A stretch of DNA of 64,000 nt from a virus, in IMG/VR virus record IMGVR_UViG_3300028423_000861, positions 32,001 through 96,000 of that record. One strand, 5' to 3'. The first letter of the stretch is position 1, and each line of letters starts with the position of its first letter. The translations under genes and the position numbers were made by a program. Shown here piece by piece: positions 30,071-51,381 of the stretch. A model generated the notes under the pieces. That model saw only the letters and a list, made by a program, of their open reading frames with translations. It did no database searches and was not told the DNA's origin.

Positions 30071-30885
30071 CTGCGTTGACCATTTTCAAATGCACGTCGA
30101 GTAACATTATACATTGCTCGAATATCTTTTATGTCAAGATCTGGGTGATGCTTTTCACGATAACGATCTAGAGCACCGTATACATCGCTCATTTCCAATT
30201 GAGACATAATACGCACCCCTTGACGATGAGCATCCGCTAACTCCAGTGCCTCTTCAACAATTTTGCTGGGTTCACCAACCTCTCCGCGATCAATGTTTGT
30301 CAAATGATAACCGGGCTTTCTTTGCTCAGGAAGCATTTCTCTAATCATTTCCCAACACTTATCTGCTGGAATTGGTTGACTGAACGGGCACACTTTTTCT
30401 TCGCCATCACGACGAACTACGCCAGCGAAATCTTTGTATGGTGTTTGACGAACAAGATATGTAATGCAATTGTCACGTGCTCTCACAGTGTGTAAAGTAT
30501 TAGCATAAATTTGATAGTATGATCCTGCAAGGTGTTCAGTATCAATCAACGGCCAGGTATGACCGCGTTCAGGGGGATGACCCTCTTTTTCATTTCCGGG
30601 CTTACAATCTTCCCAAAATTTTTGATACTCACCGTCAGGACCTGGTTGCCATCCCCAAATGGTCTGGTCAAATGTTCCTTGTAAGATATAGCTAATAAAA
30701 TCATAACGATGATCGTGTGGTTCTTCAGCTAAAACAGGAAGATCCTTGTGGTAAAAATGAACTCGCGCATTGGTTTTGGTTTTTAGCTGAATAAAGCCTA
30801 AACCAAAATATGCAGGCTCTGCTCCAAATGATTTTAAACAGTCAATATCAAGCAGATGTTCCGAATTCTTGTTGAAATCCATCAA
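30067..30885 (-). CDS. Cupin-like domain fused to a MazG-like C-terminal domain
   Basis: PHDHRYDFISYILQG...LHTV (cupin) plus SKIVEEALELADA...LEMSDVYGAL (ExxE...ExxD). Confidence 0.55.
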   Translation of the reverse strand: MMDFNKNSEHLLDIDCLKSFGAEPAYFGLGFIQLKTKTNARVHFYHKDLPVLAEEPHDHRYDFISYILQGTFDQTIWGWQPGPDGEYQKFWEDCKPGNEKEGHPPERGHTWPLIDTEHLAGSYYQIYANTLHTVRARDNCITYLVRQTPYKDFAGVVRRDGEEKVCPFSQPIPADKCWEMIREMLPEQRKPGYHLTNIDRGEVGEPSKIVEEALELADAHRQGVRIMSQLEMSDVYGALDRYREKHHPDLDIKDIRAMYNVTRRAFENGQRS

Positions 30886-31588
30886 TAGTCCTTTCTAGAT
30901 TTCCAAAATTAAAGAAATGAACTCGTTCGCGTTCTGATCCATAATCCGTATCACGCCAGAAACGGTTAACGTCGATTCTTCCGTTGTGAATATAATTTAT
31001 ACCAGATTTGTTTATCCACAATCCTTTAAGAGAAGTTGTAACACCACACAATTTCATGTATTTCCACAATCCCTTGGCAGTTGTTTGTGTGGGTAAACAT
31101 GGAATAATAAAATTTCTCCACCAACGCATCCTTTCTGGATTGAGGCAAAGCTGATTCATACCGTAAGATATATCCCCAACTCTCAAATAGGTTATCGATT
31201 TAAGACGTTTTGTTTCGTCGAGATTGGGGTCTACACCAATATAAAATTTCCAGTTCAAAGCTAAATTTTCCTGGAGATCATAATATACATCTAGTTTGTC
31301 ACGATATATCCAATTATCACCAGCACCTCCGATAAGAAGAGCCTGTTGAGATTCATTGTTGAGGTCTTGAATGCCTTCTATCAATTCTGAAACAGAATGT
31401 AGATTACGAGCAGCAATATGCGGAAAAGCAATACGGCGTCCAGCAACATCATTGATGCGCTTGACGCCGTCTACAGTAGCAGCAAAGCTATCATTCGGGA
31501 GATGTGTTACACTAACAGCATCTACCTTATCGAGAACTTGTTGGGATACTCTACTACGGGGGGTTGCTTCAAAACTAATTTTTACCAT
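30848..31588 (-). CDS. Methylenetetrahydrofolate reductase-like (MetF-like) protein
   Basis: ISFEATP, VSVTHLP, PHIAARNL, ALLIGG, LWKYMKLCGV. Confidence 0.6.
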   Translation of the reverse strand: MVKISFEATPRSRVSQQVLDKVDAVSVTHLPNDSFAATVDGVKRINDVAGRRIAFPHIAARNLHSVSELIEGIQDLNNESQQALLIGGAGDNWIYRDKLDVYYDLQENLALNWKFYIGVDPNLDETKRLKSITYLRVGDISYGMNQLCLNPERMRWWRNFIIPCLPTQTTAKGLWKYMKLCGVTTSLKGLWINKSGINYIHNGRIDVNRFWRDTDYGSERERVHFFNFGNLERTIDGFQQEFGTSA

Positions 31589-31744
31589 ACTCTATTTATT
31601 TTTCATTAGGACGATTCTTTTCCTGTGACTCACGAAATTGGCGTTTACCTTCTGCAAGCATCCATGCAAAAAAAGGACACATAGCCAGAAAAACGCAAAG
31701 TGCAAGAAGGGCTCCGGGCTCCATTTTTTCCTCCTGTATTGATT

Positions 31745-31804: not shown

Positions 31805-32036
31805 CATGTCATGCTCTTTCGTAATTGGTAGCCCCGCCACGCGAGCGGCGATCTTGACCACGTTCAAGATAATATGGGTCCTTGTTGAGTGCAATGCAAA
31901 CTTTTGCGGCTTTTTCTTTTCCGCGAATAGTTGTATAAAGCATACCACCAACGAGGATATCCCACAAATCAGTGGTATCGCGATTGGCCGATCGACAATT
32001 TACCATTTGAAAGTCTTGATGTTTCATATTGTTCCT

Positions 32037-42932: not shown

Positions 42933-43553
42933 TTAGAACTGAAACTCGAGTTCGATATTTGCATAAGCATCATCATTTGCAGTGTCAAATGGCTTAACAA
43001 CGCTTGGACGAATTGCAAGATTGTCATTTAGTGACACATCAACACCCAATTCTCCGTATCCGCCTGTTGCGGTAAAATCTTCACTCGCATTCCACGAGTA
43101 GCCAACTTCACCGAACATGTCAAGTTGATCAGTTACCATGAACTCAAGACCAACACGTGGCGTGACAAATACATCGCCGTTACCAAAGTCGCTTGTGTCG
43201 GCAGTATATGCAACTTGTCCAGCAAGTTCAAGGGTAGCGCCTTCACGGGTTTCTGTGTAGATGTATTCTGCACCTAGTGTTCCGACACCCTGATCGTTTA
43301 CTTCAGTGTATTCACCAAAAACAAAAACTTCGCTTGTGCCTGCTCCGAGTTCGTATTCTAGAACATAAGCACCAGCACCAAGTGTCCAAACATCACCAAT
43401 GCCGTTAAAATCACTTCCTACATTTGTTGTAGCGGTGAATTCAAGAGTTCCGTCGGTGACGGTTGTAGTGAGACGATTTGTGTCAAAATCACCTGCTGAA
43501 GCGACAGATGATAGACCAAGAGCCATAGCGGCTGAAATAACAAGTGTTTTCAT
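42933..43553 (-). CDS. Outer-membrane beta-barrel protein
   Basis: Signal peptide (MKTLVISAAMALGLSSVASA), amphipathic strands, C-terminal IELEFQF. Confidence 0.75.
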   Translation of the reverse strand: MKTLVISAAMALGLSSVASAGDFDTNRLTTTVTDGTLEFTATTNVGSDFNGIGDVWTLGAGAYVLEYELGAGTSEVFVFGEYTEVNDQGVGTLGAEYIYTETREGATLELAGQVAYTADTSDFGNGDVFVTPRVGLEFMVTDQLDMFGEVGYSWNASEDFTATGGYGELGVDVSLNDNLAIRPSVVKPFDTANDDAYANIELEFQF

Positions 43554-43656: not shown

Positions 43657-44331
43657 TTAGTGCAACAAATCAAAACGCCCCTTCATCACTTTGCTACATT
43701 TTGCAGATTTGCCAGTCTGGTGGTCTTTCACTTGGTCATCCTGAAAGCGATAGGTCCTTACCTTGTCTGCTCGCATACCGGTACCCGTTAATTCGCTACG
43801 TAGAGAGCTTGTCTCTGACAGAGATCGGGTTTCATAATAATCACGAACCCGACGTTCAAGTTCATTCCAAGCTTCCGTGTAACTCTGATTTCTTTTTCGG
43901 CACTGACTTGTCGTAACAATTCCAGTAGGTAAGTGTTTTATACGACATGAATTTTGATGGCGATTGCGGTGCTGGCCTCCTTTTCCTGTGCCACTAAACC
44001 ATTCAATGGTTACATCCTCCATCAAGACGTTCACGTCTTTCGCAGCTACCGTCGCACTGGGTAGAACCGCAACGGTGACAGTAGAGGTGTGAACTCTTCC
44101 TTTTCGTTCTGTTGGGGGTATTCGTTGAATACGGTGTCCGCCCGACTCCAACTTTAACTCTGCCTCCTCCGCATGAACTACAACCTTTGCTGTTCCATCT
44201 GACTGTTCTAGACTTTGCCACTTTCAACCTTGCTTTTCAAACCATTTGATATACGCATTCATGAGTTCACCCACGAAGATTTTTGCGTCATCACCGCCTT
44301 CACCGGCACGAATTTCTATTTGATATGGCAT
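43657..44331 (-). CDS. Class I peptide chain release factor, RF1-type (PxT), lacking domain 1, with in-frame TGA at codon 36 (44224-44226)
   Basis: MPYQIEIRAGEGGDDAKIF...WFEKQG*KWQ...ESGGHRIQRIPPTERKGRVHTS...GKGGQHRN...HLPTGI...KVRTY. Confidence 0.85.
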
Positions 44332-44402
44332 ATCTTTTCTCCTGGTTTGATACGTTGATATTTATCAGCTGAATAAATACATTACAATCCAAAGGACATT
44401 CT

Positions 44403-45638
44403 ATGAAAACATTTATCGTCAGAGTTGACAATCCCACCGTTCGTGACACACTTGCCAATCATGGACAAGTTGGTGATCCACAAACACTCAAAAAGATTAT
44501 TATTTTTAAAACTGATCTAACACAAGATGAGGTAGCTGATCTTCCTGGAGTATTGGAGGTTGAAGAAGAAAGTCTTGATACCCCTTTTGATATTGACGCT
44601 TATCCGTATCGAATGGATGGCGATACATCTGAAGAATCCGTTAAACAAGAACGAGAAGTTCAAGTGCAGAGTCGTCCAAGGAGTTGGTTCCTTCCCAGTG
44701 CAAGCAATACTCAGCCAGATTATACCTATACAAGAACTGGTCGTGGGATAGCAATTTATATCATGGATTCGGGCGTTCGCTTAGACCATCGAGACTTTAA
44801 TGGACGCCATATAGAAACTGTTTTTACATATGATGGTCGTGATTATGGTGGTGACGTTCGTGGCGCTGAACACGGAACCATGTGTGCTAGCTGTGCGGCA
44901 GGTAATATTTACGGTATCGCAAAAGAAGCTTCTATTTTTAATGCTCGTTATAATTGGACAAGTTCTGAAGGTATCAAAGCACTTGATACTATACTTGCGC
45001 ATCACCGCACTCATAACATGCCAAGTGTTCTTAGCATGAGCTTTAGCTCATCTAGTAACATTTATGATCAAGCTCTCACAGAATTAGCACATGATGGTGT
45101 TGTTCTTGTATCATCTGCAGGAAATTATGACGAGTCACGTCCGCGTTTCCCTGCTGTTCGTGATGATGTCATCGCTGTTGCAGCCTGTAACGAAAACTTG
45201 TATCCTAGTCGTTGGGGAGGCACTACTCCTGGAACAAACTATGGCAAAGAGGTTGATATTTGGGCTGGTGGCTCGGGTGGTCGTGCAGCAAGCATGGCAT
45301 CTACAACGTCTGAACAAAGTGCTGGGGGGACAAGTTCAGCTTGCCCATTGATTGCAGGCACCGTGGCACTCGTTCTTGAAGACAGTCCTAAACTCAAAAG
45401 CTACGCAGATGTTCTCAATGCAAAAGATATTTTGATTAAAAATTCACGCAAAGGTGTTATCAAATACAACGACGCAAAATATAATGAAACACCAAATCGT
45501 TACATTTATACTCTGATTGACGATGAAATGCCTGAACCATTACCAGTTCCAAAATCCAAGGGTGGAAATATGAAAAAAGCAGCCCTTGTTATCGGGGCTG
45601 CTCTAATACTTGGTATTGTGATATTTGGTATTTTGTAA
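44403..45638 (+). CDS. Subtilisin-like S8 serine protease with C-terminal membrane anchor
   Basis: IMDSGV, HGTMCA, SAGN, GTSSACP; propeptide-like N-terminus; C-terminal TM. Confidence 0.9.
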   Translation: MKTFIVRVDNPTVRDTLANHGQVGDPQTLKKIIIFKTDLTQDEVADLPGVLEVEEESLDTPFDIDAYPYRMDGDTSEESVKQEREVQVQSRPRSWFLPSASNTQPDYTYTRTGRGIAIYIMDSGVRLDHRDFNGRHIETVFTYDGRDYGGDVRGAEHGTMCASCAAGNIYGIAKEASIFNARYNWTSSEGIKALDTILAHHRTHNMPSVLSMSFSSSSNIYDQALTELAHDGVVLVSSAGNYDESRPRFPAVRDDVIAVAACNENLYPSRWGGTTPGTNYGKEVDIWAGGSGGRAASMASTTSEQSAGGTSSACPLIAGTVALVLEDSPKLKSYADVLNAKDILIKNSRKGVIKYNDAKYNETPNRYIYTLIDDEMPEPLPVPKSKGGNMKKAALVIGAALILGIVIFGIL

Positions 45639-50159: not shown

Positions 50160-51381
50160 AAATAGTGAGATTACCTAAATTTCCGCGGTTGCCTTTGGAC
50201 CGTACCGTAAACCTTGCGAGTCTACGTTAATCCGTTATCCACTAAGCGCCTTTCAGCTGACTTAGTATCAACCAGTGCTGCCTAGTTTAAAGTGGTGGCA
50301 TTTCCACTATCGTTACACGCTACTCGTCCTTTGATCTTCCGCCTGCCTTGCGAGCAGTTCAGAGTCGCTAAACCCTTACGTCTTCTCTCCGAACAAACAC
50401 TTCCGCCTTGCGAGCTTCCATGCACGACATTCACCGTAGTGTGTCGTATTAAGCACCTTTAACGTGCAACTGAGGCAGTCTTTGCGTTTTTGCTATAATG
50501 CATCTGCAGGATTTGAACCCACACATTCAGTTCCTAAAGACTGACGCTCTACCATTGAGCTAAGTTGCTAACCTACCAAGACGTGCTGCCTCTTGTTGCT
50601 TCGCATCCTTTTGGGAAACGAAATACAACACGCCTAAATGCCTTTCTCCTTGCGGGATACTAAACGTCTTTTCAAGTATCCAGCTACCTCACTAGTCGGT
50701 AACTCTCAACTTTAAAGATAACAAGTTGCCCTCCTGCGCGAACAGTCGGACTATTTGTTTACCCGTTAACATTCTGTCTTCGCTAGATTGGAGTGCATAG
50801 CTTTGGCTCCCACCAAATTGTAACCTCGCCGGTTGGCCCTGGTTACTATCCTTTCGGGCATTTGCTCTAGCTTAGGACTTACCTCGCTCTTCACAAGGGG
50901 TGCGCTACGGCTTATAGGAATACATCCGTCTGCCACCTAGTCCGGGCTTGCGTAAATGGACCATTGCTGGCGCAAGTGCGTAGGCTTCCTTGCTTTGGCA
51001 GTGTTACCACTGTTATCCTCCTGGACGTCACGCCGCCCATGTTCTTGTCTTAGATGATGAGTGTGCAGACATGTTGGGATTTAACCAACGAGTCGATTGC
51101 CTGGACATTTGTGTAAGCAAAGGGAAAGGAAATTGACAATCAACACCATCACCTTTGTCTGCACACACGACATCTAAGACCATTTTACAATAATCGGCTT
51201 CTATGTTTTTATATACACACCACTCGCATTTTGATATTATCTCAACGTTTTGACTGCATGGATCTTCCATCGCGGCGCAGGAAATTTCCTTTCAGGCCCG
51301 ACGCAGCGGATTGTCCCGCGATTCCATGACCAGGCAGTGTGCATGTAAAAACATAGTTGCCTATGTTGGTCTGCTAAATTT
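50160..51381 (-). ncRNA. Giant structured ncRNA with GOLLD-like core (5' limit of core uncertain)
   Basis: About 1.2 kb with no credible ORF; repeated GCAAG-capped hairpins; embedded tRNA-like domain. GCGUGUUGUAUUUC, AAAGGUGCUUAA and terminal GUAAUCUC resemble GOLLD as recalled, not searched. Confidence 0.65.
50499..50569 (-). tRNA. tRNA-like domain with 8-nt anticodon loop (CUUUAGGA), no CCA
   Basis: GCTC AATGGTA GAGC, TCAGT/ACTGA stem, GTGGG TTCAAAT CCTGC; mismatched acceptor stem. Confidence 0.65.

Follow-up and report, generated by a model that had tools for sequence, protein, structure and literature searches.

In bacteria the stop codon UGA is recognised only by the release factor RF2, and factors of the PxT type read UAA and UAG. 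The gene for RF2, prfB, carries an internal stop at codon 26. Control through an internal UGA is textbook knowledge for RF2: a survey of more than 12,000 bacterial genomes found that the premature stop in the prfB frameshift motif is almost without exception TGA, the stop specific to RF2, and saw no sign of programmed recoding in bacterial prfA (PMC12421855). Here we analyse a phage gene that represents an RF1-type case. It lies on the minus strand of a 64,000-nt stretch of viral DNA (positions 32,001 to 96,000 of the IMG/VR record IMGVR_UViG_3300028423_000861; the whole of this stretch is called the window), encodes a release factor of the RF1 type and contains at codon 36 a single in-frame UGA, which recurs in a family spread over hundreds of huge-phage genomes from many environments. 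We propose, with a probability of roughly 60%, that this UGA is subject to programmed read-through, probably with insertion of tryptophan and in competition with host RF2, so that little of the factor would be made and RF2 would govern its amount.

UGA is the leakiest stop codon and is read mainly by tRNA-Trp; in Escherichia coli the normal tRNA-Trp is reportedly the usual reader, favoured by a 3' A, as work on Q-beta and work by Engelberg-Kulka are said to indicate. In Q-beta the normal tRNA-Trp now and then inserts Trp at a UGA that has an A behind it, and the A1 protein arises as a minor longer product. The gene studied here would likewise be a phage gene with a leaky UGA in a standard-code host. 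It differs in that the stop of Q-beta ends a functional coat protein, to which read-through adds a C-terminal extension, whereas the present stop interrupts a single fold, so that only the read-through product could function; moreover, the present phage is a DNA phage and the product itself a predicted termination factor. Huge phages are known to encode RF1, RF2, transfer-messenger RNA (tmRNA) and SmpB (PMC7162821). Among phages with altered codes, the TGA-recoded Jade phages encode RF1 and the TAG-recoded Lak and Agate phages RF2, their release-factor genes being written in the standard code with no internal stop and the late genes being recoded genome-wide (10.1101/2021.08.26.457843). Those phages and the present family have in common that phage-encoded class-I release factors, proposed to reshape termination during infection, co-occur with suppressor tRNAs, but the family described here is not recoded and its sole in-frame UGA is found in the release-factor gene itself. 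Loss of the N-terminal domain 1 with retention of the GGQ catalytic domain is shared with PrfH and ArfB/ICT1, from which the phage protein differs by keeping a codon-reading domain 2/4 with a PxT motif. In eukaryotic viruses, Jeudy and colleagues are said to have reported in 2012 that the eRF1 genes of some giant viruses need recoding; there too a viral termination factor would depend on recoding of a stop, but the protein is an eRF1 of the eukaryotic/archaeal type, the hosts belong to another domain of life and the recoding signals are others. A full-text literature search of incomplete coverage returned no account of RF1-type phage genes in which an in-frame UGA is conserved. For RF2, control of the gene by recoding is known; in the present family it would concern an RF1-type gene and would operate by read-through and in trans.

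The gene had been listed as an open reading frame (ORF) of 164 amino acids (43657-44151), which begins at a TTG not shared by the relatives. The preliminary description recognised this ORF as only the 3' part of a longer gene with an ATG and a ribosome-binding site upstream in the same frame, and all of its coordinates are correct (Table 1); a GGAG equivalent also precedes the ATG in the relatives L004, L006, L008 and L009. The 35-codon segment in front of the UGA reads M-P-Y-Q-I-E-I-R-A-G-E-G-G ... F-E-K-Q-G, and the sequence resumes after the UGA with K-W-Q and continues through H-R-I-Q-R-I-P-P-T to GGQ in one frame, which bears out the claim that no frame shift is involved. The gene ends with TAA, a stop that is read by both RF1 and RF2.

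When the UGA is treated as a sense codon, the product matches the Pfam families PCRF (residues 5-87, spanning the stop) and RF-1 (residues 99-204). The best NCBIfam model is prfA with 204 bits (equivalog cut-off 400), followed by prfB with 129 bits (cut-off 370), and a search of solved structures favoured RF1 chains (4e-41) over RF2 chains (1.5e-25). The RF1 assignment made earlier is therefore upheld, with PPT, GGQ, the glutamine and the His-Thr-Ser residues all present and RF1 scoring above RF2 in every sequence search. The Gln of RIQR and the His-Thr-Ser align with the RF1 decoding residues that, in the Thermus RF1 structures, read the second and third bases of the stop codon. When the protein is aligned to the RF1 structure 1zbt, the UGA falls on the Trp of its G-W-K motif, in agreement with the earlier remark that this position is usually aromatic. 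The protein is nevertheless not a full-length prfA: it has 224 residues, scores below the equivalog cut-off, and its match to the prfA model (NF001859 / TIGR00019) begins at model position 108 of 347. Nor is it RF2 (prfB), since the motif is PPT with no SPF and the frame runs continuously over the UGA. Likeness to PrfH, proposed together with the loss of domain 1, holds only as far as domain 1 is indeed missing; the PrfH model (TIGR03072) gives 33 bits against a cut-off of 166.65 and covers residues 98-170 only, and the RNA ligase encoded nearby belongs to PF09414 and is not RtcB, and membership in PrfH was rejected.

The AlphaFold model of the read-through product has a mean predicted local distance difference test score (pLDDT) of 86 and a predicted template modelling score (pTM) of 0.71, and in Foldseek it matches ribosome-bound RF1 with a template modelling score of 0.86, normalised to the query. 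Residues 1-35 are predicted to supply the decoding domain with its first strand and its long helix, and the 24 codons after the UGA to encode the strands beta-2 and beta-3; neither ORF alone would therefore give a complete decoding domain. From sequence and model the product is best classified as an RF1-type factor of domains 2-4 that lacks domain 1 and is neither a canonical prfA nor a PrfH, and the full codon-reading domain 2/4 with its PxT motif is predicted to be retained.

The internal stop is conserved. A profile search of IMG/VR yielded 299 contigs with relatives, of which the best 80 were inspected, with identities down to ~50% and including complete genomes of 340-524 kb. The column of Trp36 is TGA in all of these 80 loci and in five further ones (85/85 fetched), a recurrence that chance could not produce. 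The closest homologues in the catalogue (60-75% identity) are 145-188 amino acids long and comprise the C-terminal part only, but in 6/6 loci fetched for them a 35-amino-acid PCRF ORF precedes the shortened ORF, the junction TGA AAG TGG is in frame and the flanking codons differ. In a set of 75 unique coding sequences no gene has any TGA in frame besides this one, and tryptophan is otherwise encoded by TGG, at ~2.2 codons per gene. The whole viral collection was also scanned with the pattern E-G-G-[DE]-D-[AS]-K-x-F followed 48 nt on by a chosen codon: position 36 was TGA in at least 119 contigs, TGG in 3, and TAA or TAG in none, and PPT and GGQ follow in frame in 110 of the listed TGA contigs (99 unique sequences). 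Homologues had been expected to reveal whether TGA or TGG is the rule at this codon, and it is TGA. Two of the three TGG members, L171 and L172, have the TGA displaced to codon 38 (TGG GCG TGA CTG) or codon 40 (TGG CAG TTT CGT TGA CTG), with frames then open to TAA, which argues that selection maintains the stop itself; an early RF2-specific stop appears to be kept even away from the Trp codon. Catalogue proteins that show W36 can be translated only if TGA is read as Trp; they are code-4 gene calls on short contigs, and their clusters are full of 35-amino-acid and ~166-amino-acid halves. Elsewhere public catalogues list the 5' piece as a separate 35-amino-acid 'release factor A' ORF. The annotation can thus be corrected where the gene is split into ORFs of 35 and ~165 amino acids or code 4 is silently applied. 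In the GenBank phages blastn gave no match and tblastn matches had at most 38% identity and were mostly canonical prfA; the family was not found in any cultured or annotated phage of this set.

Selection was assessed as the pooled Nei-Gojobori ratio of nonsynonymous to synonymous differences (pN/pS) over the 75 unique coding sequences, with the clade of the window computed separately. For codons 2-35, before the TGA, pN/pS is 0.28 (0.23 in the window's clade); for the 24 codons after it, 0.63 (0.47); for the rest of the gene, 0.31 (0.40), synonymous differences being near saturation (pS 0.56-0.78). Purifying selection acts both 5' and 3' of the UGA, as the preliminary description had required of a genuine read-through gene. 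Independent initiation downstream, which would have spoken against read-through, finds no support: the first in-frame ATG, GTG or TTG lies anywhere from +4 to +162 codons past the UGA in the 75 sequences and favours no position, so separate initiation is not conserved. A stop conserved across diverged homologues with same-frame purifying selection downstream is what is expected of a read-through gene, and TGA in the homologues together with the lack of a conserved restart implies that the full-length protein needs read-through of the UGA.

The nucleotide following the UGA is also biased. In the 75 unique sequences the +4 base is A in 54, G in 20, C in 1 and U in none, and among the listed TGA loci of the pattern scan (119) the counts are A 93, G 17, C 9 and U 0; for comparison, of 609 TGA codons that truly end genes in these genomes, 31% have a T behind them. 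The absence of U at +4 would fit leaky termination.

In the mechanism that we propose, most ribosomes would stop at codon 36 through host RF2 and free a 35-residue peptide, and a minority would translate through the UGA and finish the factor of 224 residues. Decoding of the UGA would most probably fall to Trp-tRNA(CCA) of host or phage, as a near-cognate reader, or, in phages that encode it, to tRNA(UCA). A factor predicted to read only UAA and UAG could not act on its own internal UGA, and its yield would then be set in trans by the balance between RF2 and UGA-decoding tRNA: low at ample RF2, higher at scarce RF2 or with abundant UGA-decoding tRNA. A plausible purpose would be homeostasis of termination capacity, RF1-type activity taking over the UAA stops, which prevail in these phages, and freeing RF2 for UGA. 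We infer read-through, the inserted residue, the release activity and the RF2-dependent response from sequence. A further and only tentative step is to regard the UGA as a dedicated RF2 sensor, at which read-through would rise when RF2 is short and fall after RF2 has been freed; different lineages may tune such a sensor by means of suppressor tRNAs of the phage, tRNA-Trp genes of unusual form or a hairpin 3' of the UGA. If the sensor reading is true, programmed read-through would here place the synthesis of one class of release factor under the control of the other, the first such circuit in nature. The sequence might also be put to use as a small, naturally occurring reporter of RF2 activity, and it offers a handle on how large phages bearing tRNAs, tmRNA and suppressors manage termination in standard-code hosts.

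The possible decoders were sought in the source record, 141,983 bp and ~60% complete according to CheckV, and in four complete relatives (G001, G003, G004 and G005). The record contains 46 tRNA genes, all on the minus strand. All four complete relatives encode tRNA-Trp(CCA) and tmRNA, and each has one gene with release-factor domains, namely the UGA-interrupted one, and no RF2. Only one of the four, G005, has tRNA(UCA), in two adjacent genes; they are ordinary, with 7-bp acceptor stems, and the genome that harbours them uses the standard code and has a release-factor gene with the UGA. A phage opal suppressor is therefore optional, and near-cognate reading by tRNA-Trp would be the common denominator of decoding. 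The release-factor gene of the window is situated inside a tRNA-rich region (window 1-64000; 42-110 kb of the record), and in complete relatives it lies in or within a few kb of the main tRNA cluster (221 against 225-240 kb in G001, 231 against 232-237 kb in G003, 66 against 58-73 kb in G004).

The anticodon stems of tRNA-Trp are normal in G001, G003 and G005. A Hirsh-type tRNA-Trp was rejected for G001, as the wild-type U11-G24 pair is kept. In the tRNA-Trp(CCA) of G004 the positions A27.C43 and U31.U39 are mismatched, leaving three Watson-Crick pairs in the anticodon stem. Short-stem tRNA-Trp variants have been discussed as UGA readers (PMC13092985), and the weakened stem of G004 recalls them, by analogy and as a lead only.

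Several observations weigh against the proposed read-through control. Neither a tRNA-Trp nor a tRNA with a UCA anticodon was found in the 141,983-bp record, i.e. in ~60% of the genome. The divergent TGG member L170 is fully open with no internal stop, and the stop is thus not obligatory for the fold family. Release activity in the absence of domain 1 is assumed from motifs. Common descent and constraints on the encoded amino acids confound the contexts at +4 and -1. RNA structure after the UGA was examined by synonymous-codon randomisation: the clade of the window has no structural excess (z ~0, n = 6), RNAalifold gives it a weak fold only (-3.95 kcal/mol), and the window's own 96 nt fold worse than shuffled sequences (z +1.5). 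With no stimulatory structure here, the efficiency of read-through may be basal only. Lastly, sequence analysis does not separate a sensor from a plain attenuator.

In other parts of the family, the large ACT/GCT clade has its strongest structural excess in the 45 nt from the UGA (mean z -1.8), this segment being the most negative of 15 positions tested. The hairpin of this subclade (L010-L016 and relatives), CGCC-UGAUA ... UAUC-UUGGCG, lies ~6-35 nt after the UGA. Among 24 diverse members RNAalifold gave no consensus pairs after the UGA, and Rfam no known RNA family around the site. The hairpin is most simply seen as an embellishment of one subclade, outside the core device and absent in this window.

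The alternative that survives best, although we consider it doubtful, is that the UGA is a plain attenuator which holds a potentially harmful release factor at ~0.1-3% of the coding potential of its mRNA with no sensing of RF2, or, as a variant of equal standing within the same small share, a timer that delays synthesis until phage tRNA-Trp or tRNA(UCA) has built up. The preliminary description had interpreted the gene as an RF1-type gene with UGA read-through, probably as Trp, made only when host RF2 is limiting or an opal suppressor is present. The first part, with Trp as the natural guess and homologues as the test, is supported; the restriction to limiting RF2 or a suppressor goes beyond the data. 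The search for a UCA anticodon that it called for found none in the record and tRNA(UCA) in one of the four complete relatives. Near-cognate read-through at a basal rate would keep the factor at a level both low and steady, which makes a plain attenuator a live alternative to a conditional switch. It is consistent with the lack of a read-through-stimulating structure in the window, with the finding that overexpression of RF1 or RF2 lowers the fitness of Bacillus subtilis (PMC12421855), and with the phages' own tRNA-Trp in all complete relatives and a release-factor gene in or beside a tRNA-rich region. Yet for attenuation any stop codon or a weak ribosome-binding site would do, whereas the family uses UGA only (at least 119 contigs against none with TAA or TAG), re-creates it when it is displaced, and in the window has a strong Shine-Dalgarno sequence (AGGAG). 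A UGA-limited yield must in any case depend on RF2, so that the attenuator differs from RF2-dependent read-through only in the target of selection.

Quite unlikely in our view is autoregulation of the prfB kind, in which the phage factor, despite its PPT motif, would terminate at its own UGA and read-through would replace the +1 frameshift. The usual PxT forms of RF1 are PAT and PVT, and PPT is unlike them. The stop at codons 36-40 also comes early, much like that of prfB. In prfB this in-frame stop, which is TGA in 98.6% and TAG in no case, exerts negative feedback (PMC12421855). The two genes are alike in encoding class-I release factors, in having an early RF2-specific UGA and never UAG, and in a yield that would be tied to termination by RF2. 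The phage gene differs in keeping its frame and in having neither a CUU UGA C slippery site nor a stimulator like a Shine-Dalgarno sequence. All RF1-type decoding elements are there (the Pro and Thr of PxT, the Q of RIQR and H-T-S), there is no SPF motif and RF1 models outscore RF2 models, and a product of RF1 type would mean control in trans by RF2 and not self-feedback.

A split gene, whose 35-residue peptide and separately initiated C-terminal protein would assemble with no read-through, perhaps after termination-reinitiation, is very unlikely. Gene callers do give two ORFs everywhere, and in the window a GGAGGAGG stretch stands 11 nt ahead of TTG 44151. That TTG, however, is CAG in the relatives, the scattered first starts past the UGA are mostly GTG or TTG, and the 24 codons after the UGA are constrained (pN/pS 0.47-0.63) and predicted to form beta-2 and beta-3.

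That a dedicated element directs the insertion of selenocysteine, or of some residue other than Trp, is more improbable still. UGA is the selenocysteine codon, one subclade has its hairpin 6-9 nt after the UGA, and ARAGORN labels the tRNA(UCA) genes of G005 'SeC'; these are nonetheless ordinary 77-nt tRNAs, and three of the four complete genomes have none. The column is Trp in canonical RF1, neither the window nor the diverse family sample has a consensus hairpin, Rfam gave no match, and the displaced UGAs at codons 38 and 40 stand in different contexts.

The genetic code was examined with a greedy ORF map of the window's phage (G000) and the four complete relatives. With code 11 the coding density of the five genomes is 0.88-0.94, TGA terminates 35-53% of genes of at least 100 amino acids, and reading TGA as sense brings no gain in coverage. 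In four of the five, long genes end in TAA more often than in any other stop (43-63%); in the GC-rich G005 (57% GC) TGA leads among terminal stops. A screen for a mini-ORF, a stop and a same-frame gene gave no excess of TGA over TAA or TAG. On coding density, terminal-stop usage and this screen, genome-wide recoding of TGA (code 4) was rejected; the phage family uses the standard code. An artefact or decay (sequencing error, recent pseudogene or code 4), suggested by a single stop within a conserved gene and by gene callers that use code 4, is excluded by the same TGA in more than 200 independent assemblies with frames otherwise intact and synonymous divergence saturated, by the standard code and by the TGG of the gene's other Trp codons. 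Of the three terminal stops these phages use TAG least (4-11%).

Table 1. Features of the RF1-type release-factor gene, its surroundings and related loci (window coordinates unless another source is named)
Feature	Position	Strand	Remarks
Complete RF1-type release-factor gene	43657..44331	-	224 sense positions with the internal UGA counted; TAA at the end
Shine-Dalgarno sequence AGGAG	44339..44343	-	7-nt spacer to ATG
Start codon ATG	44329..44331	-	start position kept in all relatives
Codons 2-35, up to the UGA	44227..44328	-	predicted beta-1 and long helix of decoding domain; pN/pS 0.23-0.28
In-frame UGA, codon 36	44224..44226	-	context GGU UGA AAG UGG; column of conserved RF1 Trp
188 codons 3' of the UGA, frame unchanged	43660..44223	-	remainder of domain 2 followed by domains 3 and 4
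TTG taken as start in the ORF track	44149..44151	-	CAG at the same column in relatives
PPT (PxT 'anticodon' motif of RF1), residues 72-74	44110..44118	-	invariant in alignment A1
GGQ peptidyl-tRNA hydrolysis motif, residues 118-120	43972..43980	-	invariant in alignment A1
Terminal stop TAA	43657..43659	-	TAA in 73/75 unique relatives
RNA ligase PF09414	41781-42518	-	111 bits; near the release-factor gene
Signal-peptide protein	42933-43553	-	weak matches to beta-barrel outer-membrane proteins, including a cyanophage domain of this kind, below cut-off
S8 subtilase	44403-45638	+	C-terminal hydrophobic segment; syntenic in L004-L007
tRNA with CUA anticodon	12210-12285	-	76 nt, A73, CCA encoded
tRNA-like gene 'ttag'	50498-50569	-	8-nt anticodon loop
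Two adjacent tRNA(UCA) genes	G005:C1:199793-200005	+	77 nt, A73 discriminator; locus L101/L102
tRNA-Trp(CCA) of G004	G004:C1:72056-72129	-	locus L151
Pattern match of L171	4116-4193	+	Trp36 is TGG, TGA displaced
Pattern match of L172	9728-9805	-	Trp36 is TGG, TGA displaced

Around the release-factor gene the window encodes an RNA ligase, a signal-peptide protein and an S8 subtilase (Table 1). In the relatives the RNA ligase lies directly 3' of the release-factor gene, with an HD-domain protein and a CCA-adding enzyme a few kb further on; ligase and CCA-adding enzyme nearby suggest a neighbourhood of RNA and translation repair. One of the tRNA genes of the record has a CUA anticodon and is of the amber-suppressor type, and tRNA(CUA) is also present in three of the four complete relatives (G001, G003 and G004). 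Despite this tRNA no credible in-frame TAG gene was found in the 141,983-bp record; a candidate at ~30848-31705 on the minus strand proved to be an ordinary ATG-started ORF behind a junk mini-ORF. A second unusual gene of the window is tRNA-like, with a four-base anticodon 'ttag' according to ARAGORN, mismatches in the acceptor stem and no encoded CCA; it could be a pseudo-tRNA or a decoder of the quadruplet/frameshift type, and a similar oddity, 'tttc', occurs in G001. No tmRNA was found in the 141,983-bp record. The tmRNA tags of the complete relatives (loci L092-L165) read ANDSVFALAA, ANDNVYALAA, ANDESYRVAA and ANNSVYALAA, and tags of the type A-N-D-x-x-Y-A-L-A-A presumably have a proteobacterial look.

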